Shown piece by piece: positions 1 to 30,453 of a DNA stretch of 64,000 bases (the stretch's first letter is position 1; each line of letters opens with the position of its first letter). The notes under the pieces were generated by a model. It was not told the origin of the DNA. It saw only the letters and a list, made by a program, of their open reading frames with translations, and did no database searches. Both the position numbers and the translations under genes were made by a program. The DNA is from a virus, in the IMG/VR virus record IMGVR_UViG_3300013101_002049, positions 64,001 through 128,000 of that record. One strand, given 5' to 3'.

Positions 1-1682
1 AACACGGTATGACTCTCGTAGATGATGATGGTGATTATTCTAATACAGATTGGGGGTCGTTATATAGTTACCATGAAGATGTAAGTACACCATATACTAA
101 AAGTATTTCAATTGTGGTAGATCCAGCTGGTATAGTTGTTAATGATGATGTTGTAACGTTAACAGTGGTTGTTAGAGATCAATATGGTATTGGATTATTA
201 GGTAAAACTGTTACTTTTTCAGATGATGATTCTTATGGTACGTTTGATCCTATAGGTGGTACAGCAGTAACCAATGCAAGTGGAATTGCTGAAATTAATT
301 ATGATCTTAATAAGCCTGGTGGAGATGTGCCTGGTTTTTCATCAAGCCATGATATTAGGATAGATATAAAAACAGACGGATCTTCTTCATTTACTGGTAG
401 TTCATGGGTATGGGATGGTATGAATTTGTTATGTCATCGCAAGTTTACAATAGCAGCTGATGATTTTATTGAACAAAAACAGACTTTGAGTGGTGATTAT
501 CCTGTAGAAGGAGATGATTTATATACACAAATGTATATGACTCAAATATCTGAAATGGAGAATGATTTTTATTTAAAAGCAAAAAGTAAATTTCAGTTTC
601 CAGGTGGTGATTGGGGTTCTGGAGGAGCGCCATCAAATCAAACAACTTCTGTAAAACAATTGGAAGAGTTTGGAAGTGATATGAATTTTGACCAGATAGA
701 TAAAGAAATTGATTCCGAAGTTTATTTGGATCAAGATAAAGAACAAGATAATGAATTACAAGTTAGTCAAACATATGTTAGTCGTCATGTTTTAACTGGG
801 CATTATGATAGTACTGATATAGATCAATTTAGGTTTATTGAAGATGCTATACCGGCTTTTTGGTCAGAAAAAAATTCTGTAAGTACAAATATTTGGATCA
901 GGCTCAGACCTTTTGCGTATAGTTTAAATCAAAGTACGTTAATTTTTAAAGTCAGAGAAATTTCATATGTAGGTGATACACATTGGCAAGATGTTACATC
1001 TTCCTGTGCAGTTAGTACGTTTGATGCTGGCGGCGGTCTTCTTGGTTTAGATATTACATATGATCCGCCAACGGATTTTCATCACAACGGAATTGTGTAT
1101 GTCGATATTGTAGTTTATGATACAGCATCGACTCCAAATATAATCGTTACTGACTATTGGTTTAAAATTATTCAAGATTATAAAGCTCCTTATATCGAAA
1201 ATGAGTATCCTTCTCGTGGTGAGGAGGATGTTGTTCGAAATACAAATATTTCGTTTGATATAAAGGATGCGGGGGTAGGTGTAGATATAAGTACATTAGA
1301 ATTTTATGTCAATAACAGAAAGAAAACACCTGTTATTTCGAATATTTCTGGTGGTTATCACGTTGAATATAACCCACCAAATGATTTCTTTTATGGTCAA
1401 ACTGCTGAAATAACAGTTAAAGTGAAAGATGCCTCGGATTATGAAAATGCATTACATGATATGTGGAGATTTTACATTGAAGAGAGCACTGGCCCTTGGA
1501 TAGACCCTGATAGTTTTTATCCGGATAATTGTACTAAAGGGGTGTCCAGAAAATGGTCCGAAATATCATTTAATGTGTATGGAATCAATGACACGGGGGT
1601 GGATAGAGACAGTATTGTAGTGCATATTGGCGGTAAGGAAAGGGGTGTAACCATAACCCCTATTATATACCGCATAAGTTAA
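1..1682 (+). CDS. Putative virion structural protein with Ig-like domains (probably 5'-truncated)
   Basis: The frame is open to the window edge upstream of ATG 9. Ig-like signatures: LTVVVRDQYG..GKTVTF..TNASGIA and DYKAPYIENEYP..NTNISFDIKDAGVGVD. Confidence 0.6.
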   Translation, partial: HGMTLVDDDGDYSNTDWGSLYSYHEDVSTPYTKSISIVVDPAGIVVNDDVVTLTVVVRDQYGIGLLGKTVTFSDDDSYGTFDPIGGTAVTNASGIAEINYDLNKPGGDVPGFSSSHDIRIDIKTDGSSSFTGSSWVWDGMNLLCHRKFTIAADDFIEQKQTLSGDYPVEGDDLYTQMYMTQISEMENDFYLKAKSKFQFPGGDWGSGGAPSNQTTSVKQLEEFGSDMNFDQIDKEIDSEVYLDQDKEQDNELQVSQTYVSRHVLTGHYDSTDIDQFRFIEDAIPAFWSEKNSVSTNIWIRLRPFAYSLNQSTLIFKVREISYVGDTHWQDVTSSCAVSTFDAGGGLLGLDITYDPPTDFHHNGIVYVDIVVYDTASTPNIIVTDYWFKIIQDYKAPYIENEYPSRGEEDVVRNTNISFDIKDAGVGVDISTLEFYVNNRKKTPVISNISGGYHVEYNPPNDFFYGQTAEITVKVKDASDYENALHDMWRFYIEESTGPWIDPDSFYPDNCTKGVSRKWSEISFNVYGINDTGVDRDSIVVHIGGKERGVTITPIIYRIS

Positions 1683-1717
1683 TCTAACCAACTTATATAT
1701 AGAGGATTACATCCAAA

Positions 1718-29300: not shown

Positions 29301-30453
29301 TGGTGTTTGGCATATGAGTCAAGATCCATCTGGTGGGCTTAGTACTATAAAAGATTCTACTTCATCTGTTAATGATGGGACCCCAGCTGGTTCTATGACT
29401 TCTACCGATTTAGTTGATGGTAAAATAAGTAAAGCCTTAGATTTTGATGGTAGTGATGATGTTATTACTCTTGGTACTATAACTACAGCAGCGTGGACGG
29501 CTGAAATTATATCGAAACCTATTAATTACACACAAAGCGGTGATGGTTTTATTGTTTTTGATGGCAATGGTATTGTTCAGGCAAATGGTTATTGGGCTTT
29601 ACTCGAAAATAGTGATTGTCAACGAAAAGGTAATTCCCTTTCTATAAGCGGTGATTTTGTAAACATAGTGGCTTCTTATGATGGAAGTTCTGTTTATAAA
29701 ATGTATGAAAATGGTGTAGAAAATAGTTCATCACATGTTAATAGTGGTTGGGCTTTAGGTGATAAATACTATATAGCAGAGGGGTATAGTAGTCGTAGAC
29801 CAGAAGGTAAAATTGACGAGGTTCGAGTGTCTAATACTGAGCGTTCTACTGCTTGGGTAAAATCTACTTATTATTCTAATTGGAATAATTTAATAACTTT
29901 TTCTGAATCATCGTTTGTTAATTTTGTTTTTAGTAATCCGGTTCCGGCGGATGCGTCCACTCAGTATGGTTATAGACATTTACTTAAAATAACTGTTACT
30001 ACTAGTGGTAATACCGCTGCGTCATATGCGAATGATATTACTTTTTATGATGGGTCGGATAATAAAATAGGTAACACAGTATCTGGTGTGTCAAGTGGGG
30101 CACAATCAACTAGTACTGACTATTATCTTACTCCGACCGCTGGTACTAATAGTTGGTATGTATATTCAACTGCTAGCGGTTATGATGGCACAAGTTCTAC
30201 TTATAGTTTTAATAATTTGTTTTTATGTGCGGGGTATACTGAGGTAGATGGTGTAAGAACTTCAGGTATTCCTGTTAGATTATATAAACGTAGTGATGGG
30301 TCGATGTTAGGTGAGGCTGTGACAAGTGGTGTAAGTGGTACATTTGTAATACCGACAAGTTATACGGGATATCATTATGCAGTGGCTTTACATCCTACAG
30401 ATGATTATCGCAATGCAGAAATTTATGATTGGTTAGCTCCGGTAGTTTCATAA
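26386..30453 (+). CDS. DUF2341-like protein with five LamG domains and the shared C-terminal module (putative adhesin or fibre)
   Basis: Four repeats of L.LHMDG..FDG.GDYL..FTI..W..W.H.A..GY..E.R.SKG..RW plus a fifth LamG domain. Confidence 0.8.
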   Translation: MGFDTWQNKLKLTIDSSKIDEDLTNFPILVALSSGTGITNYDATDVFDQLEPNTISGVAVSGTYDDYTKLMLHMDGDFSDSQHTITMNGNPKLYATGIFNGSMYFDGAGDYLNIPDSSDFDLTSVFTIDFWFKTNTSNQCCLLNTGNANNSNEYQIEMNRTAGKLSVYSSGQKCVTASSWNDNNWHHCALVCDGTDMKMYIDGVKDGEELSYAPSWTPTGMYIGSAGGSEYYTGYIDELRISKGISRWTSNFTTPTEPYTTDSGTVLLLHMDGDQSESQHTVTFNGNPQLYATGKFNGSMYFDGTGDYLSLSDDSDWDFGTGDFTIDFWINPGVLPANYFELSGTATGDMFIGGRSGTVGIGRVNVAWDQEYVGGLSTTTWAHIAFVRFSGVLTIYVNGLSIGSDNNTNDYDFNSLYVGRQSGYYYTGYIDELRFSKGIARWTSNFIPPTGPYGSSWDNRKKIAVTTEVASPGIYDPMTKLLLHMDGDQSDSEHTVTFAGNAQSYSAIGKFDGSYKFDGAGDYLNLGSDSDWNFGSEEFTIDFWMYATSNADERDGLICVQNGSGDIEIHIGLGVASWGSAGDKICLSINYSGGWGADLVGSIGVCDSTWHHVAITKSGTSWKTYIDGVEDISTTYSFSPGAGTLLIGAHITTDRWFNGYLDEVRISKGVVRWDSSFTPPTEAYTTDSGTVLLLHMDGDQSRSEHSFMFNGNPQISSAEYKFNSSYYFDGSGDYLSIPSSTDFGFGTDDFTIECWTKFGGSQTNDSVICANWEETGGSWAANEWTLHNNHHVSGGYWSFWVYNINSSAEILVSTSASNDDTWTHVAVVRSGQNFYLFVNGVLEDSTSSNLSLDGGGSHPVYIGGDISTMYLTGYVEEFRISKGIARWTTTFSGLLPTDAYARSTGEVQLPVEIERWDSINEKAWLWTQVPTITSGTDTDLYLYYDKDQSDNTTYIGDTGEVASQNVWDNDFVGVWHMSQDPSGGLSTIKDSTSSVNDGTPAGSMTSTDLVDGKISKALDFDGSDDVITLGTITTAAWTAEIISKPINYTQSGDGFIVFDGNGIVQANGYWALLENSDCQRKGNSLSISGDFVNIVASYDGSSVYKMYENGVENSSSHVNSGWALGDKYYIAEGYSSRRPEGKIDEVRVSNTERSTAWVKSTYYSNWNNLITFSESSFVNFVFSNPVPADASTQYGYRHLLKITVTTSGNTAASYANDITFYDGSDNKIGNTVSGVSSGAQSTSTDYYLTPTAGTNSWYVYSTASGYDGTSSTYSFNNLFLCAGYTEVDGVRTSGIPVRLYKRSDGSMLGEAVTSGVSGTFVIPTSYTGYHYAVALHPTDDYRNAEIYDWLAPVVS

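Follow-up and report, generated by a model that had tools for sequence, protein, structure and literature searches.

The window analysed here, a stretch of 64,000 nucleotides (nt) corresponding to bases 64001-128000 of the 150,128-bp single-contig virus record IMGVR_UViG_3300013101_002049, carries in its first 30.5 kb a run of putative virion genes whose products are rich in the four-residue motif T-x-S-G (T.SG in pattern notation). An exact count gave 36 copies in eleven open reading frames (ORFs) starting between positions 9 and 26386, close to the approximately 35 copies in eleven ORFs of the original prediction. One strand carries every gene of the contig, and all ORFs described below are on the plus strand of the window.

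The first of the motif-bearing ORFs (9-1682) codes for the C-terminal 557 amino acids (aa) of an 852-aa virion protein with Ig-like domains and has a single motif, TLSG159 (nt 483-494). It is followed by a 206-aa ORF at 1718-2338 with TNSG84 and TVSG179 (shuffle P = 0.0095) and by a conserved structural ORF of 522 aa (2394-3962), whose only motif, TISG324, is kept in the relatives G1 and G2. Two large ORFs come next: a structural ORF of 1,809 aa at 7348-12777 with four motifs (residues 122, 728, 1254 and 1380; shuffle P = 0.0015), and one of 2,275 aa at 13179-20006 with F5/8 type C and LamG domains and three motifs (216, 1544 and 1868). The 1,035-aa ORF 20019 (20019-23126) contains six (34, 39, 89, 111, 343 and 388; shuffle P < 0.0005), none of which is common to its G1 orthologue; for relatives of this ORF in IMG/VR no pattern matched. 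A 265-aa SPRY-domain ORF at 23149-23946 has two motifs (221 and 233), both in a C-terminal module that it has in common with ORF 24774. The beta-propeller-like ORF 23959 (23959-24768, 269 aa) carries four (94, 151, 188 and 249), the 429-aa ORF 24774 (24774-26063, DUF2341 and LamG domains) three (53, 396 and 423) and a 112-aa ORF at 26033-26371 one (TESG18). Finally, the 1,355-aa ORF 26386 (26386-30453), with five LamG repeats, has nine. The counts of six, four and nine given earlier for ORFs 20019, 23959 and 26386 were thus exact.

Per-protein composition predicts 6.2 copies for the 36 observed in the window. Shuffling whole proteins 2,000 times gave a mean of 6.25 (standard deviation 2.5, maximum 16), which places the observed number at z = 12, and the excess over composition proposed originally therefore survives this check. 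When residues were shuffled inside 20-aa blocks the mean was 6.6 and z was still 11.7, so that local composition is not the cause; the two procedures together eliminate a compositional or local-compositional artefact. Between 30.5 and 64 kb, in about 10,900 aa, only one T.SG is found, TASG285 in the extra N-terminal part of a clamp-loader gene (ORF 59497), and this single copy had also been recognized at the outset. When all 24,000 patterns of the types abc, a.bc and ab.c were scored without prior selection, T.SG came out first (Poisson p 2e-16, Bonferroni-corrected p 5e-12), the second-ranked pattern reaching a corrected p of 0.016. The codons at the window motifs vary, as had been noted: Ser is encoded by TCN in 21 cases and by AGY in 16, Thr by ACT in 18 and by ACA in 16, and the Thr and Gly codons match background usage. 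The use of both Ser codon families, together with background Thr and Gly codons, excludes a cause at the DNA level, and the signal thus lies in the protein.

All three fixed residues are required for the excess. The near variants remained close to expectation or below it, with S.SG at 1.4x, T.TG at 1.25x, S.TG at 1.3x, T.SA at 0.6x, T.SN at 1.2x, T.NG at 1.0x and T.DG at 1.3x, and the SG dipeptide, once T.SG sites were subtracted, was at the level of unrelated phages. Flanking preferences are weak, with T at -1 and -2, V or I at x and T or V at +1, giving an extended form [T]-T-[V/I/L/T]-S-G-[T/V/S].

The whole contig contains 99 T.SG sites, which fall into 86 clusters by flank identity, 13 of the 99 sites joining larger clusters. 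The multi-member clusters include the fibre repeats DG.R.FT.TVSG...HLTTKNYVD and YYT..EVDT[IL]SG, and a minority of sites lie inside the fibre modules YVD...T[ILV]SG and DG..FT.TVSG; most motifs are found outside longer repeats, tail-fibre repeat modules included. Further paralogous sites occur in the LamG repeats of ORF 26386 (residues 261 and 686), in the propeller blades of ORF 23959, in an N-terminal module common to ORFs 24774 and 26386 and in the C-terminal module common to ORFs 23149 and 24774. The statement that the motif ORFs are unrelated and that duplication plays no part was therefore slightly overstated, given these paralogous modules; its substance stands, as duplication accounts for a minority of sites only. 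Hidden repeat modules as the cause of the excess can be set aside on the same grounds.

Within the contig the motif is confined almost entirely to one class of protein. Putative exterior ORFs (tail, baseplate, fibre and adhesin), a class defined by gene position and by Ig-like, LamG, DUF2341, SPRY, F5/8 type C, tail-fibre, phage tail repeat and gp53-like C-terminal domains, account for 95 T.SG against 13.0 expected (7.3x). The class rests on position and domains because PHROGs, applied to 20 structural ORFs, gave almost no annotation besides the major head protein. The 7,531-aa tape measure protein has three T.SG (2.4 expected) and the remaining contig proteins one (4.3 expected). Tape measure proteins taken together (n = 3) have 7 against 9.1 expected, and head proteins 1 against 1.4. 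The major capsid protein (MCP) is a 376-aa ORF at genome positions 3636-4766 (phrog_2522); the genes neighbouring it have no T.SG in this phage or in its relatives. Fibre genes upstream of the window are denser in the motif than the window genes, with 8 T.SG in 523 aa and 13 in 1,812 aa. The run of fibre-like genes with the highest density, at genome positions 7263-20349, has the capsid gene on one side and the tail genes on the other, and does not follow the tape measure gene; these genes may code for head or neck fibres.

Relatives of the MCP are abundant in IMG/VR (276 matches), and 80 of these, all at least 78% identical, were kept. Since a complete relative, G006, measures 268,764 bp (CheckV 100%), the 150-kb contig is probably a genome fragment. 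The MCP-linked loci of the relatives contain 467 T.SG in total for 85.7 expected. Loci of close relatives showed a 5-15x excess, phages with only a fibre module in common 0.5-2.5x, and unrelated phages and other LamG-repeat proteins about 1.2x. Two divergent relatives, whose proteins are mostly 25-65% identical to those of this phage, were compared whole; T.SG ranked first of the 24,000 patterns in the exterior proteins of both G1/G6 (45 vs 12.7 expected) and G2 (65 vs 11.5). The top patterns of unrelated phages were different ones that derive from known fibre repeats (HxH, collagen G-x-y and SGEIHF). The 120 homologues of the LamG-repeat protein that were compared include 28 full-length sequences of the phage type, which carry 182 T.SG against 33.1 expected (5.5x), with motif variants showing no excess; in another 46 LamG-repeat proteins the count is 134 for 107.4 expected (1.25x). 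At the position where the clade has T-V-S-G, a homologue 25% identical to the 523-aa fibre shows P-V-x-G. The unrelated phage loci and the 46 LamG-repeat proteins rule out that beta-rich virion proteins, or LamG folds, carry the excess as a generic trait. Because unrelated phages, other LamG-repeat proteins and the P-V-x-G fibre homologue do without a T.SG excess, the motif is, on these sequence comparisons, clade-specific and not demanded by the folds.

The positions of the motif shift between orthologues, and the count is maintained. In reciprocal-best orthologues of this phage and G1, which have 34 and 27 aligned sites, 11 are at matching positions, and in those of this phage and G2, with 23 and 14 aligned sites, 5 are, so that about a fifth to a third of the aligned sites are common to orthologues of 30-60% identity; at the others the partner has unrelated residues. 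An alignment of 35 LamG sequences places 224 sites in 75 columns, 39 of them singletons, and a few near-fixed columns are found in the C-terminal module. The family of ORF 23959 (65 homologues) has one to nine motifs per protein (mode 4-5) for about 0.17 expected, at some 12 recurrent polymorphic positions where alternatives of the same length are also found (DYTG, LVNN, MTLD). On a FastTree tree of this family the minimum parsimony changes at the 12 positions sum to 127, a figure inflated by tree error, and the homoplasy of motif positions is high. A small number of sites hardly vary (25 of 26 and 60 of 65 sequences).

Mapping on predicted structures had been proposed as a check, with turns as the expected location, and in two AlphaFold2 models 10 of the 11 mapped sites are found at a strand end, turn or loop. 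The model of ORF 23959 is a beta-propeller (predicted local distance difference test score, pLDDT, 88; predicted template modelling score, pTM, 0.81), in which all four motifs occupy hairpin turns, Thr being placed at the strand end or just past it and Gly ahead of the next strand. For ORF 26386, residues 560-1355 were modelled (mean pLDDT 73.5), covering seven of its nine motifs: 616 and 1262 are at strand-end/turn hairpins, 1205 is at a strand end preceding a loop, 686, 890 and 1049 are in coil or loop, and 1231 is within a strand as assigned by DSSP.

Candidate enzymes that could act on the motif are encoded further along the window. The original prediction described the glycosyltransferase (GT) genes as adjacent to the motif ORFs; this did not hold, and they are located 12-28 kb downstream, within the replication module. 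The first, at 42244-44691, is a GT4 enzyme split by a LAGLIDADG intein (60% identity to its G006 counterpart, 21-26% to those of a sister clade), which can be considered a candidate reader or priming enzyme by inference only. Directly behind it a second conserved GT4 (44692-45810) shows 51% identity to G006 and 24-26% to the sister clade, with the chlorovirus GT B736L (3oy2) as its best PDB match. In this phage, G006 and the sister clade the pair always comes after RecA, DnaB, primase and a PD-(D/E)XK nuclease.

A variable glycan cassette follows at 45821-59359. Pfam matches identify in it GT2, GT9-like and GT4-like genes and a GT1_2/GT90-like gene; it further encodes the tailoring enzymes sulfotransferase, methyltransferase and three hexapeptide acyltransferases, and the sugar-precursor genes UDP-GlcNAc 2-epimerase, PIG-L deacetylase, GFO oxidoreductase, PfkB kinase and a cytidylyltransferase-cupin protein. 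The families of flippases, polymerases, ligases and polyprenyl-phosphate transferases were not detected in the cassette, and a crude hydropathy scan of it showed no multi-pass membrane protein. In G006 the genes downstream of the GT4 pair are different ones, namely ThyX, a DXD-type GT, GT2, a GT17-like gene, a deacetylase, a formyltransferase, a C-methyltransferase and a PseB-like dehydratase. G006 conserves neither the sulfotransferase nor most of the tailoring genes. The GT9 match of the ORF at 46707-47600 is weak (E 6.6e-9) and covers its C-terminal part only. The ORF lacks a homologue in the records G001-G005, which are all incomplete, and a BLAST comparison with the ORFs of the complete G006 gave no match; as a conserved reader it was discarded, not being found in the five relatives' incomplete records. 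The PfkB kinase and the cytidylyltransferase-like, cupin-containing protein, in this order at 57130-58853, share the cassette with the GT9-like gene and by sequence resemble a split HldE-type sugar kinase/nucleotidyltransferase.

The sister clade (G009 and the complete, 148-kb G012) has an MCP 32-36% identical to that of this phage and a diverged GT4 pair at the 21-26% identity given above. In G009 T.SG reaches about 2.4x, and SG as such is enriched 2.3x (143 vs 63 in G009, 124 vs 53 in G012). The top patterns of both genomes are A.SG, PSG, ASG and SGV/SGI, with the excess in the baseplate and fibre proteins encoded after the tape measure gene and outside the tape measure protein itself. Such a shift fits a motif that co-diverged with its reader, as a correlation over two clades.

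That T-x-S-G is a selected protein-level signal, clade-wide on exterior proteins at 5-7 times chance, is well supported, as all three residues are required, one protein class is concerned, the pattern ranks first clade-wide, positions turn over, the sites lie at turns or loops, and the motif excess is absent from LamG controls and unrelated phages. The original suggestion of a convergently selected protein-level signal can therefore be retained. T-x-S-G would then be a short linear recognition motif under positive selection, presented on turns and loops of the modelled outward-facing tail, baseplate and fibre or adhesin proteins in a widespread clade of uncultured large phages.

The best explanation as a whole, which we hold tentatively and at nearly even confidence, is that of a recognition motif read by a soluble phage GT, with the exterior proteins putatively O-glycosylated. 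The reader would most likely be phage-encoded and would modify virion proteins in the cytoplasm, during or after their folding; the conserved GT4 pair that precedes the variable cassette offers the best candidates. The Ser of the motif, or its Thr, would carry the O-linked sugar, from which the enzymes of the variable cassette would go on to assemble a glycan particular to the lineage. Given the conserved GT4 pair and a cassette without a recognised membrane-pathway component, O-glycosylation is the most economical reading; the case for glycosylation at the motif rests on these two circumstances and is circumstantial, and we consider it possible, if somewhat doubtful. The attachment of anything, its being a sugar, the acceptor residue and the reading enzyme are all inferred. 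The fuller version, in which a cytoplasmic O-glycosylation sequon is read by the GT4 pair, the cassette builds the glycans, the sites shift like the glycan shields of animal viruses and the sister clade uses an A-x-S-G or P-S-G-V version, appears to us doubtful, though a real possibility.

Several observations weigh against the glycosylation reading. A promiscuous cytoplasmic enzyme reading the bare motif might deplete T.SG from cytoplasmic phage proteins, and avoidance of this kind was looked for in the non-virion phage proteins and not found (22 T.SG vs 15.5 expected). The MCP has no T.SG in this phage or in ten relatives, unlike the glycosylated mycobacteriophage capsids. The label exterior is a putative one, based on gene position and domain content. 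The co-occurrence of motif and GT pair is circumstantial, as the compared set includes no GT-less relative. The strongly conserved sites, as well as the recurrence of the motif once per blade or module, also fit a structural role. Finally, because the GT cluster is situated within the replication module and beside a thymidylate-synthase-like gene, whose place is taken by ThyX in G006, glycosylation of DNA has to be reckoned with, and the GT4 pair and cassette could equally act on DNA instead of protein. The thymidylate-synthase-like gene is a divergent 217-aa ORF at 32573-33226, of which only the C-terminal third matches thymidylate synthase models; it could be a deoxynucleoside monophosphate (dNMP) hydroxymethylase, which would favour GTs acting on DNA.

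A lineage-specific structural solution, in which T-x-S-G forms a strand cap and tight turn that stabilises the hairpins of beta-rich fibre and adhesin domains, has spread because stability was selected for and has nothing attached, is rather unlikely in our estimation. The mapped sites do lie at strand ends, turns and loops, with beta-branched residues favoured at x and T or V after Gly, yet the turn-forming equivalents T.NG, T.DG, T.TG and S.SG are not enriched. The motif recurs in the propeller and inside recurring fibre modules, and a mild SG excess (1.0-1.8x) is common in structural regions of phages; outside the clade, however, homologous folds do without the motif. The few near-invariant sites would be natural for a structural requirement, but fast gain and loss with a maintained count would not be expected from one, and at the polymorphic columns alternatives of the same length substitute freely.

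Specificity, turnover and class restriction do not tell which reader is involved, and it is conceivable, though unlikely, that the motif serves something other than a GT: a kinase, sulfotransferase or acyltransferase of phage or host, or else a protein docking on the fibre hairpins, such as a shared assembly chaperone or a decoration protein. Genes for a sulfotransferase, a methyltransferase and three acyltransferases are present, and the products of the glycan cluster may act on DNA or on some other target. Conservation in G006, however, extends to the motif and not to the sulfotransferase or most of the tailoring genes; neither a kinase nor a dedicated chaperone was identified, and the GT4 pair are the only conserved candidate enzymes found. 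An origin of the excess in duplicated modules, in local composition or in a pattern picked after the fact is highly improbable and largely refuted, for although several sites are paralogous copies and the short-pattern excesses of other phages do stem from fibre repeats, the number of flank clusters, the block shuffles, the first rank in unbiased scans of three genomes and the non-homologous position of most sites between orthologues all speak against it.

The proposed glycosylation of T-x-S-G can be compared with several known systems. Sequons whose positions drift while their number is kept include the eukaryotic and viral N-x-S/T and the Bacteroidota D-S/T-[AILVMT]. Like these, T-x-S-G is short, enriched in exposed proteins only, and gained and lost at non-homologous positions; its residues are different ones, and the compartment would be the cytoplasm, not the endoplasmic reticulum or the periplasm. 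Eukaryotic glycosaminoglycan attachment by xylosyltransferase takes place at Ser-Gly with acidic flanks, often in the form S-G-x-G. A likeness to this site was part of the original prediction, and the Ser-Gly core and the sulfotransferase of the cassette are indeed reminiscent of it. The analogy fails on the context, as T.SG needs Thr at -2 and flank analysis revealed neither D/E enrichment beside the motif nor an S-G-x-G arrangement; in addition, the sulfotransferase has no homologue in G006.

Among phages, mycobacteriophage virions are reportedly O-glycosylated by phage-encoded GTs (Freeman et al. 2023, Cell Host Microbe, as cited in PMC12619734), and glycans are reported to have been shown chemically on the C-termini of capsid and tail tube subunits. 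To our knowledge, phage virion glycosylation has been chemically shown in mycobacteriophages only, and we know of no sequence rule for it; in full-text literature searches no paper on a T-x-S-G or Ser-Gly sequon of phages came up. The phage studied here resembles the mycobacteriophages in its phage-encoded soluble GTs and in having its own virion proteins as the proposed cytoplasmic target. It differs in that its candidate sites form a four-residue motif on fibre and adhesin turns with a motif-free capsid, and in a far larger gene cassette (about 17 kb). As a further point against glycosylation, the mycobacteriophage glycans are reportedly shown chemically, whereas this phage is known here from sequence and models.

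The autotransporter heptosyltransferases Aah and TibC (BAHT) act on AIDA-I and TibA, where they hyper-glycosylate a beta-rich surface protein in the cytoplasm at many sites and with no sequence consensus (PMC4358343, PMC3835316). Many candidate sites on beta-rich surface proteins and a proposed cytoplasmic modification are features of T.SG phages as well, and the location of sites at strand ends, turns or loops known from BAHT substrates (PMC3835316) is the one seen in the two AlphaFold2 models. This phage also has a GT9-like gene together with the PfkB kinase and cytidylyltransferase-like protein of the split HldE-like type. Unlike BAHT, T.SG phages specify three residues strictly, and their conserved candidates belong to GT4 and not to GT9.

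Two further features of the genome were observed. Amid the structural genes, at 4064-5992, a 642-aa ORF combines CapR-homology, REase_MTES_1575 and Mom-family domains; at least four paralogues are dispersed over the genome in the relatives G1/G6, and by its sequence it looks like a mobile or homing-type gene. In the non-structural proteins of genome positions 94-145 kb (window 30.5-64 kb and beyond), D-L-x-A is found 25 times against 4.2 expected (p 4e-12), and LPA and EYV are in excess too; these excesses may come from repeated intein or homing-endonuclease motifs.

Even with nothing attached, a clade-specific, residue-strict and fast-relocating motif on receptor-binding proteins needs explaining. 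If T-x-S-G is a strict four-residue sequon of a widespread clade of environmental phages, it would provide a predictive rule for modified phage surface proteins and a small portable tag for glyco-engineering in the bacterial cytoplasm. It would also offer a reason for the large soluble glycan cassettes of big phages, and in bacterial viruses it would be a counterpart of the shifting glycan shields known from animal viruses.

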